DNA of 32,000 nt from Thermodesulfobacteriota bacterium (GCA_026625185.1 CP113000.1:300001-332000); one strand, 5' to 3'. Shown: positions 2,153 to 29,538, counted from the first letter of the stretch. A program made the numbers and translations. Notes: a model not told the origin generated them from the sequence alone.

Positions 2153-2161
2153 TCTTATTGA

Positions 2162-3318: not shown

Positions 3319-3334
3319 AAATCGATGTGAGTCA

Positions 3335-6222: not shown

Positions 6223-6237
6223 AAAAACAGGTGCGCA

Positions 6238-6660: not shown

Positions 6661-6747
6661 GAAATAAGACACCGTTTCACTATTTTTTTTCGATAGAGTT
6701 GCGCCTGCTGCTAAGAAAATCCAATTAAAATCTCAGGCCATCTTTAT

Positions 6748-9857: not shown

Positions 9858-9982
9858 CTTAGGACCTCTTGTCATTGAAAATGAAAGGAAAGTCCTCTCT
9901 TCAGGGAACTCTGTTATGATATGGCAACTTAAAGTTTCTTCTTTCTTTTTCTTTTTTCACCAGTGACAATTTTATATCTACT

Positions 9983-12500: not shown

Positions 12501-12578
12501 TAGCAAAGTGCCCTCTTTAAAATTTTTATTTAACCGCTTCTTACCACCCAAAAACCCATTGTTAGATATCTTTATTGT

Positions 12579-12847: not shown

Positions 12848-12933
12848 TATAACAAATAAGGGAGAAATTCCGGATTTTTTTAAATGGGCATGGAGCTTAA
12901 AGAATCGTCGTTGCTTTTGGCAAATTGATTGAT

Positions 12934-13959
12934 ATGAACACCATTTGGATAGACCTCGATAACTCACCCCACGTACCATTGTTTAAACCCGTTATTGAAG
13001 AGTTAAACAAAATGGGTATCAAGACCATTGTTACTGCCCGTGATTATGCTCAAACCATCAGGTTGCTGGAACTCTGGAATATTAAGCACATAATTATAGG
13101 CCAACATGGGGGAAAAAGCAAGGTTCGGAAAATTATTAATCTGTTTCACCGAGCCTGGCAACTAATAAGGTTTGCCCACGGTAAAAATATTAATTTGGCA
13201 TTAAGCCACGGATCGAGGACGCAACTTCTGGCTTCACGCATTCTCGGTATACGCAGCATCGTAATGCTTGATTATGAATTCACCGAGAGATTTCTCTTTA
13301 ACCTCCTTTCAACAAAACTACTGATCCCTACCCACATACCTGATTGGCGTCTTCGGCAAAACAATTTTTTTCTGCACAAAGTAATCCGTTATAACGGTTT
13401 TAAAGAACAATTATACCTGAAGTCTTTTGTGCCAGATTGCACGTTAAGAAACCAACTGGCTATTGATGAGGATAAAGTACTTGTGACCTTGCGTCCTTCT
13501 GCAATGTTAGGAAATTACCATAATATTCTTAGTGAAAAGATTATTCTGAAAATACTCGACACCCTTATAGATAAGACGGAGGTTTATATTTTGGTCGTTT
13601 CCCGCACAAAAGAAGATAAGAAATTGATCGAGGACAGGTTTTCGAAAAAAATCAGGTTCCTTGAGCGGGCTGTCGATGGGTTGCAACTGATCTGGAATTC
13701 TGACGTATTCATTAGCGGCGGAGGCACCATGAGCCGTGAAGCCGCATTACTTGGGGTCCCGACTTACAGCATTTTTACCGGCAAAAAACCTTATCTTGAT
13801 GAATACCTGGCACAGCAGGGCAAATTAGTTTTTATTGATACCCTTGAAAAAGCTTGCGGACTGGTCGTGCAAAAACGGCATATTACCCTCGACTATAAAA
13901 GCAGTAACGAGAAAGTATTGCAGCAGGTCGTGGAAATGTTGCTGCAAGAATTATATTAA
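12934..13959 (+). CDS. DUF354-family protein (GT-B / UDP-GlcNAc 2-epimerase-like fold)
   Basis: The N-terminus IWIDLDNSPHVPLFKPVIEELNKMGIKTIVTARDYAQTIRLLELWNI...IGQHGG matches my recollection of the DUF354 signature. The C-terminus has GGGTMSREAALLGVP, as in GT-B enzymes. It is the only plus-strand gene inside the EPS locus. The ORF track starts at TTG 12925. Confidence 0.55.
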   Translation: MNTIWIDLDNSPHVPLFKPVIEELNKMGIKTIVTARDYAQTIRLLELWNIKHIIIGQHGGKSKVRKIINLFHRAWQLIRFAHGKNINLALSHGSRTQLLASRILGIRSIVMLDYEFTERFLFNLLSTKLLIPTHIPDWRLRQNNFFLHKVIRYNGFKEQLYLKSFVPDCTLRNQLAIDEDKVLVTLRPSAMLGNYHNILSEKIILKILDTLIDKTEVYILVVSRTKEDKKLIEDRFSKKIRFLERAVDGLQLIWNSDVFISGGGTMSREAALLGVPTYSIFTGKKPYLDEYLAQQGKLVFIDTLEKACGLVVQKRHITLDYKSSNEKVLQQVVEMLLQELY

Positions 13960-14049: not shown

Positions 14050-14925
14050 CTATTTACCAAGATTCCCGCCCAGTAAGGCAATCAGTTTTTTAAACTCTTC
14101 CTGTCTCAGAAATTTCACAAATTTTTCAGGCACTTTTCTCTTCGGTCTTTGTAAACATGTCCAGAAAAAACCACACGTCCTCACCAAACTTCCAAGCACA
14201 AAAGGTTCCTCCCAGAGTCTTTGCATTGCCCGCGCAATATGAAACAAAGGGTGGTAGCCAAGCATGTACTCAATGCGTCCTTGTTTAAATCGTGCCTTTA
14301 AAATACTCCGCCCTTCTGTCCCTGTTCTTCGGTGGTGCAAAACCTTTAGCTCCGTGAAGGAACGCGTCTCCCATCCTTTCATCCTGGCAGTAATCTCGGC
14401 AATAGCGTCTTCATTCCCAAAACTAATAGGGATGTATCCTCCTACCTCCTCAAAACAACTCCTTCTAAAGAATTGCACCCCACCAGCAACACTATTATAG
14501 CTGGAGTATCGCTTGTGCGCTTTGTTATCATAAAAATCAAATACTTCTCCTCCGGCAATACCGAGCCTGGGATTGGCTATAAATTTTTCCAGCACCTTTT
14601 CATAATAAAATGGTGCAAAGGTTAGATCAGCATCTAAATTTCCGATAAAATCATGCTCGACCCCCGCTACTCTCCCCTCACCATCCTTAAAAGCATATAC
14701 CTTAGATGCGAAATTTCTTTTTTCAGAAGACTTCCGTCGAAGTAACTCAATAAAGGAATACCTTGCTTGGTACTGCCGAACGATTTCATCAGTGCCATCA
14801 GTTGAGCCATCGCTCACTATAATCCATTTTTCCGGTAAAATCGTTTGCTTAATAACGGACTGGATCGTTTGCTCGATATAGACCGCTTCGTTGCGCGCGG
14901 GAGTTATCAAAACAAATTTTTGCAT
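14050..14925 (-). CDS. family 2 glycosyltransferase
   Basis: ITPARNEAVYIEQTIQSVIKQT...IIVSDGSTDGTDEIV and a DAD motif (NLDADL). Its ATG directly abuts the stop of the upstream Wzy-like gene. Confidence 0.9.
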   Translation of the reverse strand: MQKFVLITPARNEAVYIEQTIQSVIKQTILPEKWIIVSDGSTDGTDEIVRQYQARYSFIELLRRKSSEKRNFASKVYAFKDGEGRVAGVEHDFIGNLDADLTFAPFYYEKVLEKFIANPRLGIAGGEVFDFYDNKAHKRYSSYNSVAGGVQFFRRSCFEEVGGYIPISFGNEDAIAEITARMKGWETRSFTELKVLHHRRTGTEGRSILKARFKQGRIEYMLGYHPLFHIARAMQRLWEEPFVLGSLVRTCGFFWTCLQRPKRKVPEKFVKFLRQEEFKKLIALLGGNLGK

Positions 14926-16206
14926 TTACTGTTCTTCGAGTAGCTTTTTGGTATTAAAAAAGTATTTTTCCCGATCGAGTATTATTAGGTAAAAAAAGAA
15001 CAGGGGTTGAAATGGCAGCAATTTTACTGCGATCCTTGCCTCAAAAAGCGCACTTACTAGAAACATCACCACTACAATCGAAGCATGGAGCGCCAAATCA
15101 CAGGAAAATATTCCTTTGAGCCGCGAAAAAGATATTAGCCACTTTAGGTTGTAGATATACAAAAGCAACAAAGCGATAAATCCTAAGATACCTGTGCTAA
15201 AAAGTGCTTCAAGCATTTCATTGTGGCAGTGAGCGGCCTGAAAATCCCAGGTAATAGGTTTAAGGGTAAACCGAGAAATGCCATACCCATGGCCAGTAAA
15301 TGGGGCCTCAGGTATCTGACGTATAACCTGGCGCCAAATGTCCGTACGACCCGTGAGAGCAAAAAATTCGGCCTTACTTTGTCCTCTTTTCCCATAAAGA
15401 ACCGCTTTGTTCCCCCAACGCGGATTCAAGGAAAAAGCTAACAAAACAAAAACAATCCCGCTCAAACAAGTGAGTGTAACTATCCATTTCATATTAACCT
15501 CTCGTGCCCGAAGGAAGAAATAAGCAAAACCTCCAACGAAAAACGATAGGATCCCCACTCGGCTGATGGCCCCTATAATGATACCAAGCATTGCTATTCT
15601 TAAGAGCCACAGGATACTGTTGGCTTTGGTTTGTTTAAAGGAAAGCCAGAAAACTAAGCCTGCGAGCAACCCAAGTTGGTTGGCATGGGTTGTTCCCATT
15701 CCCAACCGGATGATTTCTTCTCCAGCAGCGGGATCAGGAAAAATAAAACTGGTGATAGCATCCTTTATGGCGCATACACCGATAACACTGAACCATATCT
15801 TTTCAAGTTGTTCTAACCGTTTAAGATCTGGTGCCGTGTAAACCAAACCGAGGACTAAAATACTTGCTCCCAAAAGCAGAGCGACATAGCCAATAACAAT
15901 TGTGGGATAAGAACTGTTTATAGCCGAAATGCCAGTTGCCACCAAAAAAATAGTTAAAACGATGCTGCCCAATCCAAACCGGGCATGACTTTTAAGAATC
16001 AGAATAGTGCCTATTACAAAACCAAACGCGCTGGTTATCAATCGCACCAGAACCAGCCAGTCCATTTCAGGAAGTTCTTCCGCCGGACGAATTCGAAAAA
16101 ATGTCCCGTTAAATACCAAAATAGCAATAAATACTAACGGGGCAAGGGAACCCAGCACATTACTCCTGCCGACTTTTGTGTCATCGGATAAATTACTTTC
16201 GTTCAT
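14926..16206 (-). CDS. O-antigen ligase/polymerase-like (Wzy_C family) polytopic membrane protein
   Basis: Multiple TM segments, and a periplasmic loop followed by AHCHNEMLEALFSTGILGF, which is a Wzy_C-type HN..L motif. Confidence 0.8.
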   Translation of the reverse strand: MNESNLSDDTKVGRSNVLGSLAPLVFIAILVFNGTFFRIRPAEELPEMDWLVLVRLITSAFGFVIGTILILKSHARFGLGSIVLTIFLVATGISAINSSYPTIVIGYVALLLGASILVLGLVYTAPDLKRLEQLEKIWFSVIGVCAIKDAITSFIFPDPAAGEEIIRLGMGTTHANQLGLLAGLVFWLSFKQTKANSILWLLRIAMLGIIIGAISRVGILSFFVGGFAYFFLRAREVNMKWIVTLTCLSGIVFVLLAFSLNPRWGNKAVLYGKRGQSKAEFFALTGRTDIWRQVIRQIPEAPFTGHGYGISRFTLKPITWDFQAAHCHNEMLEALFSTGILGFIALLLLYIYNLKWLISFSRLKGIFSCDLALHASIVVVMFLVSALFEARIAVKLLPFQPLFFFYLIILDREKYFFNTKKLLEEQ

Positions 16207-16376
16207 CTGAGGCCACCATAAAGATAAAATTAATTAATCTTACCCGATTCTCCTTTCCTCCAACAAAGAACCTAAAACCAATAACGTCTAACCGCTCGGA
16301 AAAAACTAATTTTTATCTCAGTGGAGATAATGTAATATTTTTGTCCGAGCTGCAAAAAACATTTACGTAAAATAGG

Positions 16377-17810
16377 TTAAAAAAAATCTTTAAATGCATT
16401 TAGTTCTTTTATAGAAAAAAACCGCATTTTTATCAGAATCACTATACTTACTGAAGCAGCCACGAGCGAGGCCACAACAAAAGTTGCCAGTTTTACCTTG
16501 GTTAAAATTAAAAACACACAGAAAAAAAATATATAAATCATTCCGAAAACTGTTATTTTTCTCCATTCAATACAAAAAGAGAAGTATTTTTTCCCGAGCA
16601 TTAATAAAGTTACCCCCGCGAATATATAAAAAATATTTGTGGCAATCACTGCGCCATACGATTTTAGCGGAGGGATAAGAAGGCAATTGAGTCCCACCGC
16701 AAAAAGTGCATAGACACTCATTATGAATCCAATAAGATAAGTCTTTTTTACTGCTCCAAGAAGGGTTTCACCAATGAAATAAAGTCCGATAAATGATATC
16801 CCTGGAAGCAGGAAGAGAATTATTGAAAAAGCTGAAGAATACTCAGGTGGTGCAATAAGCGGTAAAAAGACACGGGCACCAAAAAGAATAATAAAAAACA
16901 TTAACGTTATCGCAAAAAAAAGGTATGACATTGCTTTGGAAATAACCTCTTTGACCTCAGTCGGGGCTAAATGGTTAAAAACGAACGGTTGAAAAGCCAA
17001 TTGAAAAGGCAGAAGGATAGCAATAGATAAAACTGAAGCTAATTTTGAGCCAAGAGAAAAAATAGCAACTGACTCAAGCCCCGAATAATAACTCAAGAAA
17101 TAAATACTCGCCCCGCCTATAATAAATAGAGCAAAATCGGAAAAGATGAGGGGAAAACCAAAATGAAGAAGTCTCGGGATCAGAGACCAGGAAATTCCGA
17201 TCCCCGTTTGAAGAAAAATATCAAAAGCAAGAAATACAAGAGTGGTCGAATACGCAGCAATAGCTGCCCAAAGAGCACCCTTCACACCCAAGTTAAACCA
17301 ATAAAGAAAAATTCCATTAACGACAATCAATAATAAAGAAGATAAAACCCCCGTGAGCATAAATTTAAGTGCTTTATTCTCTGCCCGATAATAGGTCATA
17401 AGGTGAATCGCTAAAGATTGGGCAAGAGCTGCCCCGCAGGCAAGATAGATATAAAGAAAAACACTGTCGAGATGCAGGACTTTTCGAAAAAAATTGGTCA
17501 AGAAAACAAATGATATTCCGGTTACCATCACACCGGCCAGTAGATTAATAAAACTTGATGCCCCCAAGAGATTGCCGTAGCTATTATTTCCCTTGCATTC
17601 TTTAGTAAAACGCAACAAACAAGACGGCATCCCACAATTCATAAATCCTATCATAGCCTGCATAGTTAATTGAAGAGTTGCCAGCATACCATATTCATTA
17701 ATAGAAAGGCCATGGGTATAAAGTGGGATTAACAAGAAGGCAGTCGCACGCATTCCCACATTTCCAAGAGCATAGATTACCGTATCTTTCCCGATCCGCC
17801 TCAGACCCAT
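16377..17810 (-). CDS. wzx: Wzx-type oligosaccharide flippase (MOP superfamily polysaccharide biosynthesis protein)
   Basis: The N-terminus GKDTVIYALGNVGMRATAFLLIPLYTHGLSINEYG is typical of this family. The 477 aa protein is highly hydrophobic, with roughly 12 or more TM segments. Confidence 0.85.
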   Translation of the reverse strand: MGLRRIGKDTVIYALGNVGMRATAFLLIPLYTHGLSINEYGMLATLQLTMQAMIGFMNCGMPSCLLRFTKECKGNNSYGNLLGASSFINLLAGVMVTGISFVFLTNFFRKVLHLDSVFLYIYLACGAALAQSLAIHLMTYYRAENKALKFMLTGVLSSLLLIVVNGIFLYWFNLGVKGALWAAIAAYSTTLVFLAFDIFLQTGIGISWSLIPRLLHFGFPLIFSDFALFIIGGASIYFLSYYSGLESVAIFSLGSKLASVLSIAILLPFQLAFQPFVFNHLAPTEVKEVISKAMSYLFFAITLMFFIILFGARVFLPLIAPPEYSSAFSIILFLLPGISFIGLYFIGETLLGAVKKTYLIGFIMSVYALFAVGLNCLLIPPLKSYGAVIATNIFYIFAGVTLLMLGKKYFSFCIEWRKITVFGMIYIFFFCVFLILTKVKLATFVVASLVAASVSIVILIKMRFFSIKELNAFKDFF

Positions 17811-17847
17811 ATTACCTGCTATAATTTTTTTCTGACATCAATGGCCA

Positions 17848-18702
17848 TCAGGAATAAATTCGTTTTTCACTTTTGCGTGAAAACTTTTTTAATTTCCGTT
17901 TAAGAACAACCGCCCACGGAAGCCAACCATATGCTCCCTTAACTTTAAGCTTAAACTCAACCAACAAGTCATGAGGGGAGGTATCTATGCGGCCCCATAA
18001 AAAATAATTTTTTTCAGTTCGATGAGGGAGCAAAGAAAAGACCTGCTGGTAGCCTGCCTGCTTCGACCATTCTAAAATTTGGTCATTATATTCACCATAA
18101 GGGAAAGCAAAAAGAGTGATCGCCCGGTTCAGTATTACTTCCAAATCATTTCGTGACTCAAAAATTTCCTGTTCTGCGGTATCCTGGTCAATCAAGGGTA
18201 GGTGAGCATGAGTTCGGGCATGTGAGCCGATGGTTACCAACTCAGGCGGAAGGCTCAACAACTCCTCGGAAGTCATAACCATTTCCATAACCCTGGTCTT
18301 ATAATGAGCAGTAAACCCGGGGCGCTCACCCAGACAACGACTGGGAACAAATACAACCACCGGAATTTTTCGCTTTACCATTTCCGGAAGTGCGTTTTCG
18401 CGAAAACTTCGGAATCCATCATCAAAAGTTACGAGGACTGGTCTGTTTTGAGTATATTCTTTACCAAGCCTGGATACATCTATGGGGGTTCCAATTTTCA
18501 AAAGCGTATCCATTTGCTGAGCAAAAGACAATCGCTCATCTGAAAAAACTGAATGATAAACCAATATGGTGCATGACTTTTGTCTCTTTATCCCAAGCGC
18601 CTTAAAGAAACTGTCCAAGAAACAATCAGCAATAAAAAAAACAGCGCTGATAAGCAACTTTATAATACGATCAATCCGTTGGGGCAAATTCAATCTCCTC
18701 AC
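17848..18702 (-). CDS. polysaccharide deacetylase (CE4 / NodB homology) with an N-terminal TM anchor
   Basis: VLVTFDDGFRS (the TFDDG motif) and GSHARTHAH (His-His metal motif). GTG start. Confidence 0.85.
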   Translation of the reverse strand: MRRLNLPQRIDRIIKLLISAVFFIADCFLDSFFKALGIKRQKSCTILVYHSVFSDERLSFAQQMDTLLKIGTPIDVSRLGKEYTQNRPVLVTFDDGFRSFRENALPEMVKRKIPVVVFVPSRCLGERPGFTAHYKTRVMEMVMTSEELLSLPPELVTIGSHARTHAHLPLIDQDTAEQEIFESRNDLEVILNRAITLFAFPYGEYNDQILEWSKQAGYQQVFSLLPHRTEKNYFLWGRIDTSPHDLLVEFKLKVKGAYGWLPWAVVLKRKLKKFSRKSEKRIYS

Positions 18703-18734
18703 CTTTGAATGGGTGAGCTTTTTACCTAATTTTA

Positions 18735-19841
18735 TTAGAGCCTACCAAAAGCAATTATTGCATTCACAACGTGAGTTATTTGCTCATTGGTCAGTTCAGG
18801 AAACATGGGGAGAGATAAAAACTCTGCAGCGCATTTTTCGGCCATGGGGAAACTTCCGGGACCACAACCCAAGAATCGGTAAGCCTCCTGAAGGTGCAGG
18901 GGAATGGGGTAGTGAATTCCGCAAGAAATATTTTTTTCAGCCAGGACGCTCAAAAGAGCCTCGCGATTTTTCGTACGGATGGCATAAATGTGATAAACGT
19001 GCTTAGCAAAATCAGCTTCAATTGGTGTCTGCACTTTGTTTACGCCGGCAAGAAGTTCATTGTAAAGTTTTGCATTTTTTCTGCGGGCTTCATTCCAAGC
19101 AGTAAGGTATTTTAGTTTTACACTCAGCACCGCACCTTGAAAACCATCCATCCGGGCGTTCCAACCGATCATCGAGTGATAGTATTTCTTCGTCTGCCCG
19201 TGATCACGAAACCGTTTAATTTTTTCCGCTAATTCAGCATTGTTCGTTACTACTGCGCCTGCTTCGCCGTATGCTCCGAGATTTTTGCCCGGATAAAAAC
19301 TGAAACAACCGGCATGGCCGATTGACCCGGCAGGCCGTCCTTTATACTTAGCGCCATGCGCCTGACAGGCATCTTCAATAACGAACAAATTATGTTCCTG
19401 GGCAATCTTTATAATCGGATCCATGTCCGCAGGCTGACCAAAAAGGTGAACCGGAACAATCGCCTTGGTCTTAGGACTAATAACACCTTTAAGGAGGTCG
19501 GGATTCATATTGAAGGTCTGTTCATCAATATCCACAAACACCGGTTTGGCGCCACAAAAGGTAATCGCTTCGGAAGTAGCAATAAAAGTATTGGGGGTAG
19601 TGATGACCTCATCCCCGTTTCCGATGCCTGAAACCATAAGCGCCGCCCAAAGTGCATCGGTGCCACTACCCATCCCTATGGCAAATTTTGTTTGACAAAA
19701 AGAAGCAAACTCCTTCTCAAATTTTTCCACAAAAGGCCCGCCCGCAAAGGAAGTGCTGTCCAACACATTCTGCAATGCCGAGGTAATTTCCGCTTGTATG
19801 ATCTTATATTGTGTTTTTAGATCAAGAAAAGGAACGCTCAT
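18735..19841 (-). CDS. DegT/DnrJ/EryC1-family sugar-nucleotide aminotransferase (WbpE-like)
   Basis: FEKEFA..., GSGTDAL, DACQAHGA and SFYPGKNLGAYGEAG (PLP Lys) are present. Its start overlaps the stop of the upstream acetyltransferase gene in an ATGA arrangement. Confidence 0.9.
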   Translation of the reverse strand: MSVPFLDLKTQYKIIQAEITSALQNVLDSTSFAGGPFVEKFEKEFASFCQTKFAIGMGSGTDALWAALMVSGIGNGDEVITTPNTFIATSEAITFCGAKPVFVDIDEQTFNMNPDLLKGVISPKTKAIVPVHLFGQPADMDPIIKIAQEHNLFVIEDACQAHGAKYKGRPAGSIGHAGCFSFYPGKNLGAYGEAGAVVTNNAELAEKIKRFRDHGQTKKYYHSMIGWNARMDGFQGAVLSVKLKYLTAWNEARRKNAKLYNELLAGVNKVQTPIEADFAKHVYHIYAIRTKNREALLSVLAEKNISCGIHYPIPLHLQEAYRFLGCGPGSFPMAEKCAAEFLSLPMFPELTNEQITHVVNAIIAFGRL

Positions 19842-20317
19842 AATTTATCCTTCCTTGTTTTTCGTAATATCCTCGCCGGGTTTCCTGCTGCCGTTGCATA
19901 TGCTGGTACATTCTCTGTCACCACACTTCCGGCGCCGACCATAGCATTTTCTCCGATTGTAATTCCACAGAGAATGGTTGAGCTTGACCCAACGGAAGCC
20001 CCTTTCTTTACCAATGTGGGGATGCAAACCCAATCCTTCTCCCCTTGAAGAATACCCTCTGCGGTAGTGGCCCGAGGGTATTTGTCGTTAATAAAGGTAA
20101 CGTTGTGTCCGATAAAAACATTGTCCTCAATCGTCACTCCTTCGCAAATAAAGGTGTGGCTTGAAATTTTACAATTTTTGCCTATCTTCGCTCCGTTTTG
20201 TATTTCAACAAACGTTCCTATCCTAGTTTTATCACCAATTTCACATCCATAAAGGTTCACGAAGTCATAAATCTTTACATCCTTACCTATCTTAACATCC
20301 GGGGCAATTTTTTTCAT
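19838..20317 (-). CDS. left-handed beta-helix (hexapeptide) N-acetyltransferase (WbpD-like)
   Basis: Imperfect hexapeptide repeats run throughout (IGDKTRIGTFVEIQNGAKIGKNCKISSHTFICEGVTIEDNVFIGHNV). I chose the ATG at 20317 (MKKIAPDVKIG); the ORF track extends to GTG 20356. Confidence 0.8.
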   Translation of the reverse strand: MKKIAPDVKIGKDVKIYDFVNLYGCEIGDKTRIGTFVEIQNGAKIGKNCKISSHTFICEGVTIEDNVFIGHNVTFINDKYPRATTAEGILQGEKDWVCIPTLVKKGASVGSSSTILCGITIGENAMVGAGSVVTENVPAYATAAGNPARILRKTRKDKL

Positions 20318-20478
20318 TGTGTTTCCGTAGTTTAATTTATTTGTTGATAAAACCACGTTGTCCAGTAAGGCAACTTATGTAACTAAAAAAATTTGAAAAG
20401 GGAAAGGGAAAAACCTTGTAATGACAAGATAGTGACACGGTGGCTATTGATCTTGATTTAAAAAGGAACCAAAGGGAA

Positions 20479-21504
20479 TCAAAGCTTGCCAAAATTAGTC
20501 AGCTTAACTTTACCTCCACCTTTTTTCAAAGATTTTGAAGCTGCCTCAAGGATTTGGACTACCCGTAGGCCGTTAAGGCCATCGGTATCGGGTTTGGAGT
20601 TGTTTTTAATACAATCTAAAAAGTGTTGACACTCAACCTTCAACGGTTCAATTTCTTGAATATACGGAGAATACACGTCGCCATAATGATAGGAGTAATG
20701 AAACTCGGCAAACGTGTCATAGTAGGGAGGGGTTTCTACCCGTTTATCAAAAATCTTGATTTTTTCTATTGGCTCCAAATCATTATATACCAGCATACGC
20801 TTAGCCCCCACAAAGATCATATCTCTTATCTTGTAAGGATCAAGCCAACTATTTCGTATGGTGACGAATGTGCCGTTATCAAAATCAATCTCCATAGTTG
20901 TAATATCTTCAATAAGGGGGTGTATATGTGCTTTCCCCTGGCAATTTACGGATACCGGAGGAGAATCAAGGATAGAAAGAATTATGGAAATGTCGTGGGG
21001 AGCCAAATCCCATAGCACATTGATATCGGCCTGATAAAGCCCGAGGTTTAACCTCCGCGAGCTGATGTAAAGAATTTTTCCTAAGTCACCGGTACAAATG
21101 ATGTCTTTAACCTTCCGCACACCGGAAGAGTAAAGAAAAGTATGACCAACCATAAGAACGCATTCTTTTTTTTGTGAAAGTTCAATGAGTTTTTTACATT
21201 CTAAAGAAGAAGAGGCCATCGGCTTTTCGATAAAGGTGTGTTTTTTTGCTTGTAAACATTTTTTTGCCATTTCATAATGATGCCGAACTGGCGTAACAAT
21301 GGCGACAGCATCGATCTCACGATCATCAAACACATCATCAGCATTGGTAGTGGTCTCGATTTCAGAATAGAGTTTTTTCATATGTACCAGGCGTTGGAGA
21401 TCCAAATCACAAACCTTTTTAACTTTACATTCAGGAAGCGAACAAAAATTCCGAATGAAATTTGGTCCCCAGTAACCACAGCCAACCACAGCAACATTAA
21501 GCAC
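20479..21504 (-). CDS. Gfo/Idh/MocA-family NAD-dependent sugar-nucleotide oxidoreductase (WbpB/GnnA-like)
   Basis: The Rossmann N-terminus is VAVVGCGYWG and the central motif is EKP. I chose the GTG at 21504 (AAGGGAG 6 nt upstream); the ORF track starts at TTG 21510. It overlaps the end of the sugar transferase gene. Confidence 0.85.
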   Translation of the reverse strand: MLNVAVVGCGYWGPNFIRNFCSLPECKVKKVCDLDLQRLVHMKKLYSEIETTTNADDVFDDREIDAVAIVTPVRHHYEMAKKCLQAKKHTFIEKPMASSSLECKKLIELSQKKECVLMVGHTFLYSSGVRKVKDIICTGDLGKILYISSRRLNLGLYQADINVLWDLAPHDISIILSILDSPPVSVNCQGKAHIHPLIEDITTMEIDFDNGTFVTIRNSWLDPYKIRDMIFVGAKRMLVYNDLEPIEKIKIFDKRVETPPYYDTFAEFHYSYHYGDVYSPYIQEIEPLKVECQHFLDCIKNNSKPDTDGLNGLRVVQILEAASKSLKKGGGKVKLTNFGKL

Positions 21505-22699
21505 TATCAACTCCCTTGGCTAATGATTGTTTTTTTCGCCGTCTATCTTTAATTTCATAAAATATGGCAAGAGGGGTAGACAGGAGGATTTTTAAATCAA
21601 GCGCAAAGGACATTTGCCTGGCATATCGGATATCTAAGCGGGCCATGTCCTTAAAGGTAAGCCGGTTTTTCCCGCTTACCTGCCAAAGTCCGGTCATTCC
21701 CGGCACCGCATCAAACCGCCCCCTATACCAACTGGCGTATTCTTCAACCTCATAAGGTATAGGAGGCCGCGGCCCAACTAAACTCATGTCCCCGAGAAAC
21801 ACATTAATAAGTTGGGGCAATTCATCAATACAGGTAGCCCGCATTATCCGCCCAAAGAGAGGAATGACCTGCGGATCATCCAGTTTAACCATCGGCGTTC
21901 CTCTTTCTTTGTCCCCGAAACCACCACGAATTAATTCAGAAAGATGCTTCCGGTGAGCAGAGCTGTCAGCATTAACTTTCATAGTCCGAAATTTATAAAG
22001 GGTAAATACTTGGCCTCCGTAGCCAACTCGGACCTGTCGAAAAAAAACTGGTCCGGAGGATACGCTTCTAATCATAAGCGCAGCAAGGACAAAAAGAGGG
22101 GAAAAAAGGATAAGAAGAAATAGGGCGCCAACGATGTCCAACAACCGTTTCCATTTGGGCATGGCAAGGAAGTATAACGTTTTCATTTGCCCAAATGCCT
22201 TCGTCCCCTCCAGCTTTGAGGTATCCCTTGAATAAGAAAATATCCGGAGCGATTTTTTTCTTTCAGAGCGTTGATAGGTCGAAACATCCTTCGGTTTTTC
22301 TGCTGGGTAAGTATGAATCTTGTATTCCGGCGGGGGAAGTCCCGCGGGAAGCAACCCCAAAATAGTTTTACTAAAAATTTCAGCCCCTTCGAATGGGGTG
22401 TTATAGAGCAAAACCCCAATATGGTAATTATCAAGCCATCCCACTTCGTCAGTAGAGCGCAGTCTTTTCGAAAGCACCCGCAAGAGGAGTTTCCCAAGTT
22501 CACTGTTAACTTCAACATCCCCGATGTCGAAATCAACCACTGAAAAAATCTGATCGGTCCGTTCCGCACGGGCAAGTTCACGCTTCAAAATACAGCTGAA
22601 CTCTTCCCGCGAGCAAATGGTGCTTATTTGGGGCATTCCTACCGACTCAATTAACCGCCTCAACCGATTAAAGAAAGACACTTTTATCTGACCTCGCAA
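21497..22699 (-). CDS. polyprenyl-phosphate glycosyl-1-phosphate (priming) sugar transferase with an N-terminal degenerate GGDEF-like domain
   Basis: The C-terminal 200 aa (LLDIVGALFLLILFSPLFVLAALMI...GPVFFRQVRVGYGG..F.LYKFRTM...DELPQL.NV..G.MSLVGPRP) is the bacterial sugar transferase domain. Residues ~25-115 align to a GGDEF domain; see findings. The start is uncertain (TTG 22699 or ATG 22636) and neither has a good SD. Confidence 0.85.
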   Translation of the reverse strand: MRGQIKVSFFNRLRRLIESVGMPQISTICSREEFSCILKRELARAERTDQIFSVVDFDIGDVEVNSELGKLLLRVLSKRLRSTDEVGWLDNYHIGVLLYNTPFEGAEIFSKTILGLLPAGLPPPEYKIHTYPAEKPKDVSTYQRSERKKSLRIFSYSRDTSKLEGTKAFGQMKTLYFLAMPKWKRLLDIVGALFLLILFSPLFVLAALMIRSVSSGPVFFRQVRVGYGGQVFTLYKFRTMKVNADSSAHRKHLSELIRGGFGDKERGTPMVKLDDPQVIPLFGRIMRATCIDELPQLINVFLGDMSLVGPRPPIPYEVEEYASWYRGRFDAVPGMTGLWQVSGKNRLTFKDMARLDIRYARQMSFALDLKILLSTPLAIFYEIKDRRRKKQSLAKGVDSA

Positions 22700-22785: not shown

Positions 22786-25053
22786 TTATAGCTTCTGATA
22801 AAGCCATTTCGGAACATAGAATAATCTCTTATTGAGAACCCCTCCAACCGGCTTTGCACCCCCCATTACAAGACGATCTTTTGCACGTTGTGCCACTTCC
22901 CATCGGTCCTCCTCCGCCTCAAAGACCATAATAACGCCATCAACCATATTTCCTAAGGTAACGACATAATTTTCTTCCCAAACAGCCGGGGTATCAATGA
23001 GCACAAAGCTGTATTCATGTTTCCAGTACCTCAGTAAATTAGCAAATCCTTTTGATTCAAAAATTCTTTTATCGCTTGCCATGCTCTCTTTACCCGCGCA
23101 AAGCACATCAAGCTTATTAACTGCAGAAGGCTGAATAACTGATGTCTGACTATACGTTCCGGCCGCAAGGTCAGCAAGCCCAGGAGAAAGATTTAAATCG
23201 AAGATTTGATGGATAGAAGGAACTTGAAAGTTTGCATCGACCAGAAGTATACGGCCGTCGCTATGTCGGGCTAAAGAACTGGCAAGATAAGCAGCAACCG
23301 AGCTTACCCCTGCTCCTTTACGGCAACTTGTTAAAGAAAAAACACGCTGCGGTTCAGCCTGAAGCTTCACTCCCATGAGTAAACGTTCTGCCATTGCTTC
23401 AAAGTCCTTAATTAAGGGTAACAACGGATCAAATCTCGTAGGCAAAACCATGGATGCCCTTTCTTGAGAAGATGTCCCTTCAGGATAAAAAGAGGCGATC
23501 GCGCCCAAGGCGGGGATTTCCAAAGTCCTCTCGATGTCTTCCGGCTTTCCAAAAGAATGGTCCAGACTTTCGCTAATAAATGCCAGCCCTAAGCCGCCAA
23601 AGACCCCTAACAAAATTCCTAATAGAAGATTAAGTAATAGGCGGGGACGAACAGGCTTAATTGGATAGTTTGCGGGCTGAACGATGCTAATATTTGAGAT
23701 TTTCACCAAATCCATGGCCTGGTCGATGAGTGATTGTTCAAAGCTTTCTGAGTATTTTTGATAGCTGGCCTGCTGGATTGAATTATCCAGCTCTAATTGT
23801 TTCATTCGCTGTTCGACATTATTAATGGTATTAAGCTCTTCTTGTGCTTTGGCCAGTTGAGTGCTTAATTCTTCGCCTTTAGCTTTAAGCGAGGCTAAAA
23901 CTGATTGTTCAGTTAATAAATTTAATTCAATCCGCTGGCGAGTATCATTTATTCCTTTAGTGACTTCACGGGCCTCTTCTGTTTTCTTAAGAATCGCTTT
24001 CGCCTCATCAATCTGGCGTTTGGCTTCCAGAACCGGTATGCTGTCAGCGGTGAAAGTTGACCTAAGTTCATTTTCCTTTAGCTGCAATTCGTTTACCCTT
24101 TTAAGCATCTCATCCGGAGCTGATAATGCTACTCCGCTTACTTCTTGTTTTATAACAGAGTGTGGTAATGAACCAATCTCTTGTTTCATCGTGTTAACCA
24201 TCGCTTCGGAAACCACCCTTTCAGACTCAGTGCTTTCGATTTCCCGCTTGAGATAACCGATTCTTTTCATTACGAGATCTTTTTGAGTATCTAATGAGCC
24301 AATTTTCGTTTTGTTTTTAAGTTCTCTCAGCTCATCGCCGGTCTTGACTAACTCCTCATAAAGCCTTTTTTTCTGATTCTCAAAAAACTGGTAAGAACCT
24401 TGGGTACGGTGTGCCTGGATATGTTTGTCAAGATAAAGATTAATGAGGGTGGTAAGTACCCTCTGGGCCATCCTGGGACTCTTTGTCTCATAGGATACGG
24501 TAATACTATTGCTCTTTTTTATGGTATCGGCATCAAAGTTGTTTAAGAGATTATCAATTGCTTTTTCCCGTTTTTTCAATAAAACAACCGTCTGGGGATC
24601 AAAAAGGATGCTGATAAAGAAAATACCTCTGGAAAGCATTTGGAAAGGAAAGGTTACTATTGTGTTTATTATTCCCGGCCCAGCAGCACCTTTCTCGTAG
24701 CCTTTGAGCACTGCGTCAACCCCAACCGTGTCTACTACTTTTCCGAGGAGTTCGCGGTTTTTAAGTATTGCCAGTTCGGAATTAATTTCGTTTTCACGCT
24801 GGGCGCCGGCAGCCATATCAACAATTTTATTTGGCTCCACGGTTGGAGAAAGCCCCACACTTTCGCGCCCAATCTTAACCAAAAGTTCCCCTTCGGAACG
24901 ATAAATTTTTGGGGAAAGAATGCTAATAAAGGCCACCAGAGCCACCACAGCAATAAAAAACCAAACGATCTTCCATTTATGTCTGAAAACAACATAATAA
25001 AAGTCTCTCAGGTTTTTTTCTGGGAACCCCTCAAATTGGATTGTTTTTTGCAC
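22786..25053 (-). CDS. polysaccharide co-polymerase (PCP-2a, Wzc/GumC-like): Wzz domain, coiled coil, second TM, and a C-terminal BY-kinase-like ATPase domain with a degenerate P-loop
   Basis: GTG start with AAGGAGG 6 nt upstream. The first TM (WKIVWFFIAVVALVAFISIL) is followed by YRSEGELLV (Wzz motif). A long coiled-coil region is followed by the second TM (LLLNLLLGILLGVFGGLGLAFI). The C-terminal domain aligns to CapB/Wzc. Confidence 0.9.
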   Translation of the reverse strand: MQKTIQFEGFPEKNLRDFYYVVFRHKWKIVWFFIAVVALVAFISILSPKIYRSEGELLVKIGRESVGLSPTVEPNKIVDMAAGAQRENEINSELAILKNRELLGKVVDTVGVDAVLKGYEKGAAGPGIINTIVTFPFQMLSRGIFFISILFDPQTVVLLKKREKAIDNLLNNFDADTIKKSNSITVSYETKSPRMAQRVLTTLINLYLDKHIQAHRTQGSYQFFENQKKRLYEELVKTGDELRELKNKTKIGSLDTQKDLVMKRIGYLKREIESTESERVVSEAMVNTMKQEIGSLPHSVIKQEVSGVALSAPDEMLKRVNELQLKENELRSTFTADSIPVLEAKRQIDEAKAILKKTEEAREVTKGINDTRQRIELNLLTEQSVLASLKAKGEELSTQLAKAQEELNTINNVEQRMKQLELDNSIQQASYQKYSESFEQSLIDQAMDLVKISNISIVQPANYPIKPVRPRLLLNLLLGILLGVFGGLGLAFISESLDHSFGKPEDIERTLEIPALGAIASFYPEGTSSQERASMVLPTRFDPLLPLIKDFEAMAERLLMGVKLQAEPQRVFSLTSCRKGAGVSSVAAYLASSLARHSDGRILLVDANFQVPSIHQIFDLNLSPGLADLAAGTYSQTSVIQPSAVNKLDVLCAGKESMASDKRIFESKGFANLLRYWKHEYSFVLIDTPAVWEENYVVTLGNMVDGVIMVFEAEEDRWEVAQRAKDRLVMGGAKPVGGVLNKRLFYVPKWLYQKL

Positions 25054-25161: not shown

Positions 25162-25920
25162 TCACCTTTCTAGCGAATTAGGCTGATCGGTTAGGATACC
25201 AATGGTATGATGCGCCGCATTAAACTGGTACATAAATCCGGTTTCCGGGACAACCTTGTTGATGTACTGGTCAATCCATTGATTTACCTTAGTGATGGTG
25301 GTTCTCGGCACATACACGATGTCGTACGGTTCCAGGTAAAACAGCTGTTTTTCTTCTTTGCCGGCTAAAGCGTTTCTACAGTCAAGAGCGCACCCGTACC
25401 GCTGCCCATTTTTATGGCGGATAATAATGACATTTTTAACATTCGCTGATCGCATATCGAATCCCCCAGCGTGCATGATCGCCTCCAAAGGAGTCATCCG
25501 TCCGGGCATATCAATTTGTCCTGGTGTTTTTACTTCTCCACCCACATATATTCGGGCTTGATACAACTTTCTGGTAATGACCGCGAGCTCTGAGTGTTGC
25601 AGGTAGGGTTTACAACGAGTCATCAGTTCTCCTCGCAGGGCTTCCGGGGTCTTTCCATCAGCAACAACATCACCAATCAGTTGCAGCTGTATTTTCCCAT
25701 CAGGACGTACGGTTAAAGCTTCACTGAATTGCGGGGCGTAGGTAAATTTAACCTCAATAATATCACCCGGACCTAATGTGGTTTCGGTTATGATTTCCGC
25801 CTGCATCTCTTGAGCAGTCTTTGCAGGATGATGCGAACAACCAGTTAAAGGAAGCACCAAAAAAATAATTATCAAAAAAGCGAATATTAGCTTGGCTTTT
25901 ACATTAATACATAATTTCAT
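25162..25920 (-). CDS. Wza-like outer-membrane polysaccharide export lipoprotein (Poly_export + SLBB)
   Basis: Lipobox LPLTGC. LGPGDIIEVKF...VRPDGKIQLQLIGDVVADGKTPEAL is the Poly_export signature. SD GGGGAGGT lies upstream. Confidence 0.9.
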   Translation of the reverse strand: MKLCINVKAKLIFAFLIIIFLVLPLTGCSHHPAKTAQEMQAEIITETTLGPGDIIEVKFTYAPQFSEALTVRPDGKIQLQLIGDVVADGKTPEALRGELMTRCKPYLQHSELAVITRKLYQARIYVGGEVKTPGQIDMPGRMTPLEAIMHAGGFDMRSANVKNVIIIRHKNGQRYGCALDCRNALAGKEEKQLFYLEPYDIVYVPRTTITKVNQWIDQYINKVVPETGFMYQFNAAHHTIGILTDQPNSLER

Positions 25921-26101
25921 CTGGTTTTACCTCCCCGTTTATTTATTTAAGATTTTTGTTTCTTGAACTCAAATCTTCTCATTAGATTAGACTAAATTCT
26001 TAAATAAGCAGCTATGAAAAAAATTATTTACTCTTGTTTTGCTTTCCCGAGTTATCTTTGTAGTGCAATGACTCCAAAGGCCATCCCTGCGCCAGAAATA
26101 A

Positions 26102-26136
26102 AAAGCCGGATTGCTTTTTATTGGTAACCCGGCTTT
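26102..26136 (-). other. terminator-like hairpin inside the long leader upstream of the Wza-like gene
   Basis: An 8 bp stem AAAGCCGG/CCGGCTTT (26102-26109 and 26129-26136) with a 19 nt loop. On the minus strand the stem runs into TTTTTATTT. The large loop makes it weak. Confidence 0.25.
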
Positions 26137-26856
26137 CTTAAATTTTAAGATCCGTGGCTTTCCGGCCCAGCCTCACGACTGGTGTGGCTTTATCATACGA
26201 ATATTATCTTTTAAAGTTGATGTGTTAATAAATATCACAGCAAATATTATACCAACAGAGAAAACCTGTATTGAGACAGGAATTTTAAAAAATAATAACC
26301 GGTAAAAATTCACCCTCCAAGGCTATTGGTCGATTTCTCTCTGGATGTAGTGCTCTAACTCGGATATTTGGACAATATATTGCGTAGCCTCCAGTTTTGA
26401 TTTAAACATTTTTCCATCCGCAAATCGAAAATTTGCCGATAGTTTTCTATTCTATGCTTTTTTGTTTATACAAATTTTTGGAACCTTTTTGACAATTATT
26501 GGCATTCATGTAAAGATTAAGCATCCCAAATAAAAAAATTGTAAATAATTTTAAAGAGTTTTTTAAAAAAAGCAAACTAAAAAATTAGGTATTTTTAAAA
26601 ATTTTAATTTGTTACTGTTATTGCCAAAAAATTTCACCTCTAAATAAAAAAATTCTTCTAATTACTGATACTCGTCCAATAATCGGCTCTTTTTTCCCAT
26701 CCCACAATCATGTCAGATTTTTTACTCCTCTACAAGTCCCTTTTCCCCCTTACTTTATGACCCCTTATCCTCTCTTGCCTATCAGCTTTTAACCACTCTC
26801 TTTCACGATGAGCCACAAAAGTTTTTCAACCGCCCGTTAAGTTGATTGATATTGTT

Positions 26857-26936: not shown

Positions 26937-28727
26937 ATGCAGTCTGCCTTTGTTAAATATTTTCTGATGGCTATCTCGATAGCGAGTTTTTTTTATTGTT
27001 CCAGTTGCACTCATGTTCCGGAGCAGGCTTCCCCGAACCCGGCGATTCCCACTCCTGTACAATCAGAAGAGAGCAAAATTCCTTTACCTTCCTCAGCGGT
27101 TCAAGAAAAAGCCGAAGCAAAAGCAGAAGAAAAAGTAGATTTGCCCAAAGACTCCCGCGCCTATCGCTCTTTTCTTTTAGCCCAATCTTTTCAATTGAAT
27201 GGTGAAAATGCAAAAGCCCTCAAAGCATACCAGGATGCTTTAATCTATGACCCCAATTCTCCGGTCATTCAAACAGACATTGCTGCCATTTACTTAAAGC
27301 AGGGAAAGATAGACGAAGCGCGTAATCTTTGTAAGCAAGCACTGACTCATAACGCCCGTTATCTCCCGGCGAACTTGCTTATGGCGCGAATTTATTTAGG
27401 CAGTAAAGATTATGATGCTGCTATTGCTCAATATGAAACAATTATCAATCTGGCTCCGGACGATGAAGAAAACTACCTTTACTTGGGAAACCTTTACGCG
27501 GAGAAAAATAAATACGAAAAAGCGCTCACCACCCTAAAGACTTTGCTCACCAAAGACCAGAATTCTTTAATGGGTCTCTATTACCTGGGAAGAATCTATG
27601 CCCAGATGAAACAGTATGAGGAGTCCGTTTTATATTTTAAAAAAGCTTTAAAAATTAACCCTAACTTTGAGGCGGCAATGATTGACCTTGCGATAGTTCA
27701 CGAAACTCAGGGAAAAATGCAGGAAGCAATTTCCGATTATGAAAAGCTTCTGGAATTTTATCCGAACAACAGCCGGGTAGTGGACCACTTGGGAAATCTT
27801 TATCTTCGGCAGAAAAATTACGATAAAGCCATCGATACCTTTAAAAGCATAGAAAGTTTTGGGCCGAGCAGCATAGATGTAAGCGCCAAAATCGGGCTTA
27901 TCTACCTGGAACAGGGAGACTATGATAAAGCAATTTCAAAATTCGAATTTATTCTGGTAACAAAACCTGATTTTCATATGGCGCGGTATTATCTTGCCTT
28001 ATGCTATGAAAAGAAAAAAAATTATGAAAAGGCCCTACAGGAATTCCAAAAAATTCCTTCTGGATCGGAAGAATACGTTGATGCGATAATCCAGATCGGC
28101 AATATTTTTGTTGACCAGAAGAACTTTCCCAAAGCGGTTCAGACGGTTAAGGAAGCTCTCTCCATCAAAAAAGATAGTACCAGTCTGATCGCTTATTTGG
28201 GTGCCCTTTACGAAGAGACCAAACAGTATGAAGAGGCGACGATGATCTTGAGGGATGCAATTAAGCAGGAACCGAAAAATTTCAAGTTACATTATCAATT
28301 GGGAGTCGTCTACGACAAGATGGGTAAATTTGAAGAAGCTATCCAGGAAATGAAAAAAGTTTTGGAACTTAATCCCCAAAATGCCGATGCCCTTAATTAC
28401 ATTGGTTACTCATATGCGGACCGAGGAATGAAGTTGGATGAAGCTGAAGAACTTATAAAAAAAGCGATGACCTTAAAACCGAACGATGGATATATCACCG
28501 ATAGTTTAGGGTGGGTTTATTTTAAAAAAGGAATGATCAAAGAAGCCCTCAATGAGTTGGAAAAAGCCGTCACCTTAGTGCCCGATGATTCCGTGATCAT
28601 CGAACATCTCGGAGATGTCTACCTCAAATCAGGGGAAAAAAATAAGGCCAAAGCCCAGTACGAGCGGGCCTTAAAAATCGATCCGGAACAGAAAAAAATT
28701 AAGGAAAAATTAGAAAATCTGAAATAG
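26937..28727 (+). CDS. TPR-repeat protein with an N-terminal signal-like segment (PrsT/PelB/AlgK-like scaffold candidate)
   Basis: More than 12 tandem 34 aa TPR units (for example AKALKAYQDALIYDPNSPVIQTDIAAIYLKQGKIDEA). Hydrophobic N-terminus with Cys residues (ISIASFFYCSSC). It is divergent from the EPS operon. Confidence 0.9.
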   Translation: MQSAFVKYFLMAISIASFFYCSSCTHVPEQASPNPAIPTPVQSEESKIPLPSSAVQEKAEAKAEEKVDLPKDSRAYRSFLLAQSFQLNGENAKALKAYQDALIYDPNSPVIQTDIAAIYLKQGKIDEARNLCKQALTHNARYLPANLLMARIYLGSKDYDAAIAQYETIINLAPDDEENYLYLGNLYAEKNKYEKALTTLKTLLTKDQNSLMGLYYLGRIYAQMKQYEESVLYFKKALKINPNFEAAMIDLAIVHETQGKMQEAISDYEKLLEFYPNNSRVVDHLGNLYLRQKNYDKAIDTFKSIESFGPSSIDVSAKIGLIYLEQGDYDKAISKFEFILVTKPDFHMARYYLALCYEKKKNYEKALQEFQKIPSGSEEYVDAIIQIGNIFVDQKNFPKAVQTVKEALSIKKDSTSLIAYLGALYEETKQYEEATMILRDAIKQEPKNFKLHYQLGVVYDKMGKFEEAIQEMKKVLELNPQNADALNYIGYSYADRGMKLDEAEELIKKAMTLKPNDGYITDSLGWVYFKKGMIKEALNELEKAVTLVPDDSVIIEHLGDVYLKSGEKNKAKAQYERALKIDPEQKKIKEKLENLK

Positions 28728-28768
28728 TAGGGACGACCGACCGGGCGCCCCTACTCGGATTTTTATTT
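28726..28768 (+). terminator. rho-independent terminator between the convergent TPR and SPFH genes
   Basis: A GC-rich hairpin pairs AGTAGGG (28726-28732) with CCCTACT (28749-28755), with extra inner pairs. It is followed by ATTTTTATTTAT. Confidence 0.6.
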
Positions 28769-29524
28769 ATTGCTGTCGGTCAGCTTTGATAAAAAAGGCT
28801 TGATCAAGTCAATAGGGATGGGGAAAAGCGTGGTTGAGTTCTTTTCCGATGCCACCTCGCGCAAGGTTTGGAGATAGCGGAGCTGTAGGGCCATGGGGTT
28901 AGGAGCCATGAGATCTGCGGCTTCAACCAGCTTGGCCGCTGCCTGAAATTCTCCCTCCGCGTGGATAACTTTTGCCCTTCGTTCTCGTTCTGCTTCAGCT
29001 TGTTTGGCCATCGCCCTTTTCATCTCATCCGGCAAATCAATTTGCTTCACTTCCACGTTCGTGACTTTTATTCCCCAGGGACCAGAATGCTTGTCCAGGA
29101 TTTCCTGGAGGTGAGCGTTGACCTTTTCGCGCTCCGATAAAAGTTCATCCAACGCTGCCTGTCCGCAAACGCTTCTCAGGGTAGTTTGAGAAAGCTGGGA
29201 AGTAGCATAGAGATAGTTTTCCACCTCCACGACTGCCTTATTCGGGTCCATCACCCGAAAATAAACGACCGCATTCACTTTAATCGAAACATTATCCCGG
29301 GTGATAACATCCTGAGGCGGGACTTCCAAGGCCACGAGCCTGAGGCTTACTCTCTGCATCTTATCAACTATGGGGATAAGAATGATCAAACCCGGTCCTT
29401 TTGCCCCAATCAGTCTCCCTAATCGGAAGATAACCCCGCGCTCATATTCATTTAAAATTTTAATGGCACTCATTAAAAACATAACTACCACTACAACGAC
29501 AAAAATAAGAAGCGGTGAAAACAT
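28763..29524 (-). CDS. SPFH/band-7 (stomatin-like, slipin) membrane protein
   Basis: An N-terminal TM is followed by [15 protein letters not shown]...GPGL..IIP..D, a coiled-coil region and an AEAERE-rich region. SD AAGGAGG lies upstream. Confidence 0.9.
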
Positions 29525-29538
29525 GTTAGTCCTCCTTT

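Follow-up and report, generated by a model that had tools for sequence, protein, structure and literature searches.

A shortened GGDEF-derived domain on a PglC-like priming transferase, a candidate c-di-GMP sensor in an exopolysaccharide operon

We analyzed a 32,000-nucleotide stretch of DNA from a Thermodesulfobacteriota bacterium (GCA_026625185.1, CP113000.1:300001-332000), which is referred to below as the window and numbered from its first letter. Within an exopolysaccharide (EPS) locus on the minus strand it carries the gene of a two-module protein, made of an N-terminal domain of ~110 aa (N-domain), a linker of ~40 aa and a PglC-like small monotopic phosphoglycosyl transferase (PGT). By sequence profiles and structure models, the N-domain is a shortened GGDEF-derived domain that is missed by standard annotation. 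In our preferred reading, to which we give a probability of roughly 0.5, the N-domain serves as a cyclic di-GMP (c-di-GMP) sensor that controls the PGT, and the operon is additionally switched by a riboswitch in its leader. What is new here is a widespread, unannotated family of mini-GGDEF domains whose output is the priming transferase.

The N-domain and its inhibitory-site motif

The features of the gene and its product are listed here, with residues in the numbering of the longest open reading frame (ORF); pLDDT is the predicted local distance difference test score.
21497..22681, minus strand: gene of the two-module protein, 394 aa from GTG 22681 (the longest ORF, 21497..22699, runs from TTG 22699 and encodes 400 aa)
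22295..22621, minus strand: shortened degenerate GGDEF-like N-domain, residues ~27-135, with alpha-beta-alpha-beta-beta-alpha-beta topology
22559..22579, minus strand: helix alpha-1 motif E41-x-x-R44-x-x-R47 (family consensus ERxRxDR), in which R44 is aligned on the RA arginine of cyclases
22436..22465, minus strand: most conserved block, R79-L-R81-S-T-D84-E-V-G87-W88, including RxxD at 22448-22459
22418..22432, minus strand: DNYHI, residues 90-94, aligned on GG(D/E)EF; positions 91-93 vary across the family
22175..22294, minus strand: linker, probably disordered, residues ~136-175, pLDDT 37-50 in both AlphaFold2 models
21500..22174, minus strand: PglC-like small monotopic PGT domain, PF02397 (Bac_transf) E=1.8e-58 over residues 184-380
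22055-22156, minus strand: hydrophobic reentrant membrane helix of the PGT with a Ser-Pro kink (LFSPLF), residues ~182-215
21821-21826, minus strand: Asp-Glu dyad of the PGT, D292 and E293 in IDELPQ, near-invariant in the alignment

The start codon of the fusion gene is probably GTG 22681, because the exact 394-aa product is annotated by NCBI in a Thermodesulfobacteriota metagenome-assembled genome (MAG; GCA_029216075.1) and the closest homolog, P0001, begins at the equivalent position (P numbers denote family proteins). The ORF at 21497-22699 is real and its sequence is exactly as quoted in a first-pass annotation of this DNA. That annotation had placed ~115 aa before the transferase domain; the figure is corrected here to ~175 residues, consisting of the domain at ~27-135 and the linker of ~40 aa. 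Across the family, the linker between the two domains has a median length of 59 residues.

Two profiles were searched against all sequences in the Protein Data Bank (PDB): A1, built from the N-terminal region and its four closest relatives, and A3, built from 67 family members. GGDEF proteins accounted for 14 of the 20 best matches of A1 (top match 3ign, E=3.5e-5), and 22 of the 26 matches of A3 were named diguanylate cyclase or GGDEF protein (3ign again at the top, E=6.6e-12). Alignment of the N-domain family with three bona fide cyclases by hhalign gave a probability of 95.9% and E=5.6e-9. AlphaFold2 models were made of the N-terminal part (core pLDDT ~85) and of the full-length protein (mean pLDDT 84.2, N-domain 90-97). 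In a Foldseek search of the PDB with the first model, the top 50 matches were all GGDEF domains, including c-di-GMP-bound ones and PelD (4euv); the GGDEF matches of the N-domain comprise 5llx (2.7e-5), 3ign, 4urq (TMt 0.59) and 6khu (TMt 0.62). The full-length model matched GGDEF domains with its N-terminal half and PglC and WbaP with its C-terminal half. Since the PDB profile matches, hhalign and the two AlphaFold/Foldseek comparisons agree, we assign the N-domain to the GGDEF domains. Scans of the single-sequence N-terminal 150 residues against Pfam and NCBIfam (E<=10) gave nothing meaningful, only noise (DUF3912, FadD17), and family member P0010 scored 18.6 bits against Pfam PF00990, below the gathering cut-off of 23.8. 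The GGDEF pattern that the first-pass annotation had read in this region is therefore borne out by all three approaches. In the profile and structure comparisons, the GGDEF fold and the PDB profile matches were found, and a match to PF00990 was not (none at E<=10).

The alignments also locate the catalytic losses. A deletion of 9-10 residues falls exactly on FKxxNDxxGHxxGD and removes the substrate loop, and DNYHI (22418-22432) is aligned on the GGEEF/GGDEF of cyclases; both the truncated substrate-binding segment and the replacement of GGDEF by DNYHI had been described in the earlier annotation. The equivalent of the metal-binding Asp is retained in only 67 of 165 aligned N-domains. With GG(D/E)EF gone and the substrate loop deleted, the N-domain cannot be a functional cyclase.

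RSTD (residues 81-84) is aligned on RQSD of 3ign, RSSD of WspR and RPxD of neighbouring cyclases, and five residues (EVGWL) lie between D84 and D90. The spacing from RxxD to the former GGDEF equals the spacing from RxxD to GGEEF in the aligned cyclases. Coordinates and alignments thus agree with the earlier statement that RSTD (22448-22459) sits five residues upstream of DNYHI, which is the spacing of the cyclase inhibitory site (I-site). The first-pass annotation had let its reading depend on a GGDEF-fold match and on conservation of RxxD among homologs, and both were found. In the 165 aligned N-domains, R81, D84 and G87 are each present in 163, E41 in 161, L98 in 158, R47 in 157, W88 and A106 in 156, R44 in 153 and R79 in 134. 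The block formed by R79, R81, D84, G87 and W88 is preserved in all architecture classes of the family. The counterpart of R44 would be R313 of PleD. Because a dead cyclase has no use for a feedback-inhibition site, the invariance of RxxD points to a receptor role.

The C-terminal half is a small PGT of the PglC type. Foldseek matched this half to PglC (8g1n at 7.9e-15 with 37% identity, and 8e37; E~1e-14, TMt 0.77-0.80) and also WbaP (8t53). The D, E and PRP positions and the Ser-Pro helix are nearly invariant in 36 aligned fusions. The roles of the Ser-Pro helix and the Asp-Glu dyad are presumably those known in general for PglC.

A widespread family coupled to the transferase

A word-indexed homolog search with the N-terminal region returned only four matches, and it was an exhaustive profile search that revealed the family: 1427 cluster representatives at E<=1e-3, with 321 of them at E<=1e-10. 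The fusion, far from being a rarity, belongs to a large, widespread and unannotated family. Genome matches are found in Thermodesulfobacteriota, Desulfobacteraceae, Candidatus Desulfacyla and several Planctomycetota (Pirellulales, Thermoguttaceae). One member, WP_208022657.1, is found in the cultured Desulfonema ishimotonii, where it is annotated merely as "sugar transferase". A functionless relic of a fused cyclase, or a fortuitous similarity, would be consistent with a single sequence that Pfam and NCBIfam do not recognize and with the lost catalytic features. We consider it highly improbable, and family-wide conservation effectively excludes it: about ten positions are nearly invariant across Desulfobacterota and Planctomycetota in a family of this size, the fold is predicted with confidence (pLDDT 90-97), and fusion, fission and duplication with the PGT have taken place repeatedly and independently.

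Architectures were counted in the window protein and the best 153 of the 1427 representatives (n=154). The N-domain is followed by a PGT domain in 58 of them, six of which carry two or three tandem N-domains; the degenerate GGDEF domain fused to a priming transferase that the first-pass annotation described, with both domains in one ORF, is thus a recurrent arrangement. Half of the set (77/154) are stand-alone N-domain proteins of 200 aa or less, and complete ORFs of ~140 aa are found inside contigs (e.g., L021-L023 and L029-L031; L numbers denote the comparison loci). The loci were gathered via a single peptide, RSTDEVGW, and the sample is biased towards that motif. The N-domain is joined to a PilZ domain in seven representatives, one of which (P0022) also has a receiver domain. 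The same MAG as the window protein encodes a stand-alone paralog, P0003 (143 aa, 56% identical; L001 10001-10432, contig JARDUI010000046.1), the gene of which adjoins a TPR protein and sensor kinases, with no EPS locus and no riboswitch. Tandem pairs of complete N-domain-PGT fusion genes occur in L032 (5284-7731) and in L037/L039 (e.g., L039 8195-10672), which suggests that the priming enzymes are paralogs, each with a regulatory module of its own.

In the window, the fusion gene is surrounded by the following genes.
25162..25920, minus strand: Wza-type polysaccharide export protein (Poly_export and SLBB), the first gene 3' of the riboswitch
22786..25053, minus strand: Wzc-type co-polymerase with a C-terminal tyrosine-autokinase-like ATPase domain (Wzz, GNVR, AAA_31), directly upstream of the PGT gene
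14050..21510, minus strand: downstream genes on the same strand, by Pfam a GFO oxidoreductase, hexapeptide acetyltransferase, DegT aminotransferase, polysaccharide deacetylase, Wzx flippase, Wzy polymerase and GT2 glycosyltransferase

A neighbour census of 31 non-redundant loci (143 neighbours) agrees with this arrangement. It counted 13 Wza, 12 polysaccharide co-polymerases (PCP; GNVR 12, Wzz 10, AAA_31 8), 13 GFO, 8 DegT, 8 hexapeptide, 6 Wzy and 4 Wzx proteins, and glycosyltransferases too. The order GFO-hexapeptide-DegT 3' of the PGT recurs in L006, L007, L018, L020, L062 and L063. From this trio of GFO, DegT and acetyltransferase, UDP-diNAc sugars are candidate substrates of the PGT. In L030, L024, L029 and L040 the N-domain and the PGT are encoded by split, adjacent genes in the same synteny. 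L030 has a 139-aa N-domain gene, a 41-nt gap and then the PGT gene; in L024 the N-domain gene is followed by the PGT gene, with a second, fused copy besides. By its gene arrangements, this fusion and fission pattern across loci shows the N-domain working with the PGT and marks it as a likely dedicated regulatory partner of the PglC-like PGT clade.

Evidence for c-di-GMP and the competing readings

Two elements are found in the operon leader.
26119..26197, minus strand: aptamer of the c-di-GMP-I class (Rfam clan CL00126); RF03167 (c-di-GMP-I-GGC) is the best model, with 65.2 bits against a gathering score of 59, E=8e-13 and 1-80/80 of the model
26096..26135, minus strand: terminator-like hairpin AAGCCGGGUU / AAUCCGGCUU followed by UUUAUUU, with a 10-bp stem and a 13-nt loop (folding of 26080-26135, minus strand)

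The aptamer lies ~200 nt upstream of the Wza gene, the first in the same-strand string of Wza, Wzc and PGT genes. Sister aptamers precede the same operon in L016 (8-86, 61 bits against 59) and in L019 (2690-2768, RF01051, 59 bits against 35). The hairpin takes its 5' arm from the aptamer, whose 3' strand it shares, and L016 and L019 keep the stem with a different sequence. Because the terminator 5' arm and the aptamer 3' strand are one and the same, the riboswitch is predicted to be ligand-ON, with read-through upon binding. A simple terminator scan of the leader missed the hairpin owing to its 13-nt loop, and pattern scans for terminators and promoters along the operon gave counts at or below shuffle expectation. 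A sigma-70-like match, which is a consensus match only, ends 4 nt before the aptamer. In L062 of Desulfonema ishimotonii, an Acido-Lenti-1 RNA match (4952-4996, plus strand; 41.6 bits against 37) is found in a ~1-kb gap upstream of Wza, occupying the place of the window's riboswitch.

PilZ domains and cyclases provide other links. The RxxxR and [D/N]xSxxG motifs are intact in each of the seven N-domain+PilZ proteins. In L063 (5651-7376) an N-domain+PilZ gene lies directly upstream of a 246-aa stand-alone PglC-like PGT, a close homolog of the C-terminal half of the window protein, and GFO, hexapeptide, DegT, Wzx, Wzy and glycosyltransferase genes follow. A PilZ gene is found just upstream in L054. 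In the planctomycete locus L005, a PAS-GGDEF cyclase gene (1695-2732, minus strand) is divergent from the fusion PGT gene at a distance of ~43 bp. In another planctomycete locus, L011, a GGDEF cyclase gene (2946-3953, minus strand; motif DGDEF) lies upstream of a PCP-PGT pair. The two cyclases are related, and their GGDEF/DGDEF motifs are of the ordinary type. The fusion gene of L011 is apparently split by a frameshift (6121-6654 / 6501-7088). The upstream riboswitch, the PilZ-fused forms beside a PGT and the adjacent cyclases in two loci strengthen the case for c-di-GMP control.

The N-domain may also sense another nucleotide, such as 3'3'-cGAMP (a cyclic GMP-AMP), another cyclic dinucleotide, pGpG, (p)ppGpp or GTP. 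Its site departs from the canonical I-site (an extra R79, W88 and no equivalent of PleD R390), the leader RNA fits the GGC variant model better than the canonical c-di-GMP-I model, and a Geobacter Hypr-GGDEF structure (6d9m) is among the A3 profile matches. Desulfobacterota use cGAMP. Weinberg and co-workers reportedly proposed, in PNAS in 2017, that GGC-type variants sense other signalling molecules. The window RNA, however, has the canonical A at both of the visible differences between the GGC and canonical forms (GGAAAGCC, GGGUUACC), and the L019 aptamer scores best with RF01051. The associated PilZ domains carry canonical c-di-GMP motifs and the adjacent cyclases have ordinary GGDEF/DGDEF motifs. 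We consider a different nucleotide improbable.

Several observations weigh against c-di-GMP sensing by the N-domain. The third arginine of the I-site (R390 in PleD, R402 in PelD) is not conserved: position 112 is D in 55, K in 19, S in 17 and N in 16 of the 165 sequences, and the window protein has Thr there. Only about half of the members carry a basic residue one turn of the helix before this position. R402 of PelD is reported to be absolutely required (PMC8461298). With position 112 so variable, we reject an I-site of the canonical form, with three residues (RxxD and the equivalent of R390), and any c-di-GMP would be bound in a different way, perhaps with the help of R79, which is specific to the family. 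No I-site role is established for the ERxRxDR helix or for the conserved G87-W88, and the latter, having no I-site precedent, could form a protein-protein surface. The PilZ fusions could be read either way, the N-domain being a second c-di-GMP site or the PGT-facing output of a PilZ sensor. The best riboswitch model is the GGC variant, whose ligand may not be c-di-GMP. The riboswitch is confined to the window's clade (window, L016, L019); more than 40 other loci gave none, which rules it out as a general trait of N-domain loci. A cyclase is adjacent in only 2 of ~35 usable loci (L005 and L011) and the top 25 neighbour families do not include GGDEF; a general genomic linkage to diguanylate cyclase genes is thereby ruled out. 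It is the missing third arginine, together with an adaptor role allowed by the PilZ fusions, that weakens the case for c-di-GMP control.

Such an adaptor is the strongest competitor. The N-domain would then be a nucleotide-blind adaptor or dimerisation domain, contacting the PGT, a second N-domain or Wzc via RxRxxDxxGW and ERxRxDR, and any c-di-GMP input would come from a fused PilZ domain or, in the window's lineage, from the riboswitch. Along with the absent arginine and with the conserved G87-W88 and alpha-1 motif that have no known I-site role, this explanation draws on the N-domain proteins with an intact PilZ, which occupy the place of the fused N-domain and in which a second c-di-GMP site would be redundant, and on the split genes, which imply an interaction in trans. 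The full-length model has a predicted template-modelling score (pTM) of 0.76, though the PGT makes up ~56% of the residues, and this hints weakly at a defined mutual orientation of the domains. There is also a precedent in EpsW-EpsZ, where a PGT is controlled through protein-protein contact (PMC12802240). On the other side, RxxD coincides exactly with the I-site, canonical spacing included, and nothing else is better conserved in a domain otherwise stripped of cyclase features. Stand-alone paralogs are found away from any PGT, such as P0003 in the same genome, and redundancy does not exclude a second site. Proteins with two c-di-GMP-binding elements are known. An adaptor seems possible to us and rather less probable than c-di-GMP sensing.

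If the N-domain is the sensor that we prefer, its mechanism may be pictured as follows. The PglC-like PGT would act at the cytoplasmic face of the membrane and start a Wza/Wzc/Wzx/Wzy exopolysaccharide by transferring its first sugar phosphate to undecaprenyl phosphate. The N-domain, derived from a cyclase whose active half-site was lost and whose inhibitory site was retained, would detect c-di-GMP at RxRxxD (residues 79-84), a variant of that inhibitory site. Occupancy would be passed on via the ~40-residue linker to the PGT, either because the N-domain docks on the catalytic domain or lets go of it, or through dimers bridged by the ligand. The initiation of EPS synthesis would thereby track the second messenger. 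In the window's lineage there would be two tiers, with the riboswitch acting on operon transcription and the N-domain on the activity of the first enzyme. The wider proposal, that widespread mini-GGDEF receptors gate the first committed step of Wzx/Wzy pathways in cis or in trans and here make a coherent feed-forward arrangement with the riboswitch, we regard as an even bet.

Comparison with known systems and the rest of the locus

Receptors of the I-site type are known in EPS systems: PelD and BcsE (PMC8461298), PssE (PMC4125290) and PopA (PMC12564702). PelD of Pseudomonas aeruginosa is an EPS c-di-GMP receptor and, like the N-domain, a degenerate GGDEF domain that has lost catalysis and keeps RxxD (PMC2170427; PMC8461298). 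It differs in that it is a separate transmembrane-GAF-GGDEF protein, belongs to a synthase-dependent system, has a GGDEF domain of full length and needs R402. The N-domain has ~110 aa and no substrate loop, is fused to a priming transferase of the Wzx/Wzy type, and does not conserve the R402 equivalent. PssE of Listeria monocytogenes and the GIL/degenerate GGDEF protein BcsE of enterobacterial cellulose synthesis are likewise I-site-type receptors encoded in EPS operons (PMC4125290; PMC8461298; PMC7439463), but both serve synthase-type glycosyltransferases and neither is fused to a PGT or known to act on one. From sequence comparison, the N-domain is best described as GGDEF-derived and it may be I-site-receptor-like; we do not place it in the PelD type, because it fails the Pfam threshold and has neither the GGDEF motif nor the third arginine of the I-site.

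Direct control of the initiating enzyme has been described in Myxococcus xanthus, where a small signalling domain, EpsW, acts on the initiating monotopic PGT (monoPGT) EpsZ of a Wzx/Wzy pathway (PMC12802240). Unlike the N-domain, EpsW is a phosphorylated single-domain response regulator that works in trans on a large dimeric monoPGT; the monoPGT in the window is small and PglC-like. The Wzx/Wzy-like adhesin pathway of the Caulobacter holdfast includes an enzyme, HfsJ, to which c-di-GMP binds directly (PMC9980756). HfsJ differs in that it is a later glycosyltransferase, not a PGT, and has no GGDEF-like domain. Riboswitches of the c-di-GMP-I (GEMM-I) class are found before EPS genes. The window aptamer resembles them in reaching the gathering score and in having a terminator platform that overlaps the aptamer 3' strand, and it differs from the typical GEMM-I riboswitch in its best model, the GGC variant, and in its restriction to one clade of loci.

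According to the account of it in PMC12802240, a survey of small monoPGTs (O'Toole, Imperiali and Allen, 2021) describes PglC-type cores with extra N-terminal domains, including a receiver domain. A survey based on Pfam would probably have left the N-domain unnamed, since Pfam does not detect it. Searchable literature, which did not include that 2021 survey of PGT fusions, holds no GGDEF-like domain on a PGT and no role of c-di-GMP at the PGT step, and within the same bounds it agrees with the first-pass annotation, which knew of no characterised example of this fusion. Post-translational regulation of Wzx/Wzy pathways is incompletely understood according to the 2025 EpsW/EpsZ study (PMC12802240), and a 2021 review of c-di-GMP control of EPS is confined to synthase-dependent systems (PMC8461298). 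The priming transferase, as the enzyme that commits undecaprenyl phosphate, which is scarce, is the logical place for control. If our reading holds, the I-site receptor principle would extend from synthase systems to the PGT step, giving a first case of a phosphoglycosyl transferase under direct control by a second messenger. A domain family overlooked by annotation would be defined at the same time (its members are "sugar transferase" or "hypothetical protein" in the records), and the operon, with both a riboswitch and a protein sensor, would exemplify second-messenger control in layers. The hypothesis lends itself to direct tests, given a soluble domain of ~110 aa, a two-residue mutant, a cultured host and natural variants that are split, in tandem or fused to PilZ.

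The NCBIfam best matches of several locus proteins are XrtA/PEP-CTERM models, all below their cut-offs. The PGT scores 135.6 against 393 for TIGR03013, the best match of the Wza-type protein is pepcterm_export, and those of the Wzc-type protein are pepcterm_ChnLen/pepcterm_TyrKin. Two more proteins of the window fall in this group.
7716-9875, minus strand: PEP-CTERM-like ATPase with LysM and SPOR domains (NCBIfam, below cut-off)
26937-28727, plus strand: PrsT-like TPR protein (NCBIfam, below cut-off)

No exosortase was identified among the window ORFs tested, and since every NCBIfam match is below its cut-off, membership in the XrtA/PEP-CTERM group is not claimed. In the distal EPS region, the ORFs at 9983-10798 (minus strand, 271 aa) and 10941-12551 (minus strand, 536 aa) had no Pfam or NCBIfam match. 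The opposite strand carries the gene of a DUF354 protein (12925-13959, plus strand) between the GT2 gene and these unannotated ORFs. The gene of a protein with an FGE-sulfatase (formylglycine-generating enzyme-like) domain (6748-7710, minus strand) adjoins that of the AAA_22/LysM/SPOR ATPase. Just beyond the TPR gene lies a pair of genes, for an HflK/C-like band-7 protein and an NfeD-family membrane protein (28763-30906, minus strand), which is seemingly unrelated to the EPS locus.

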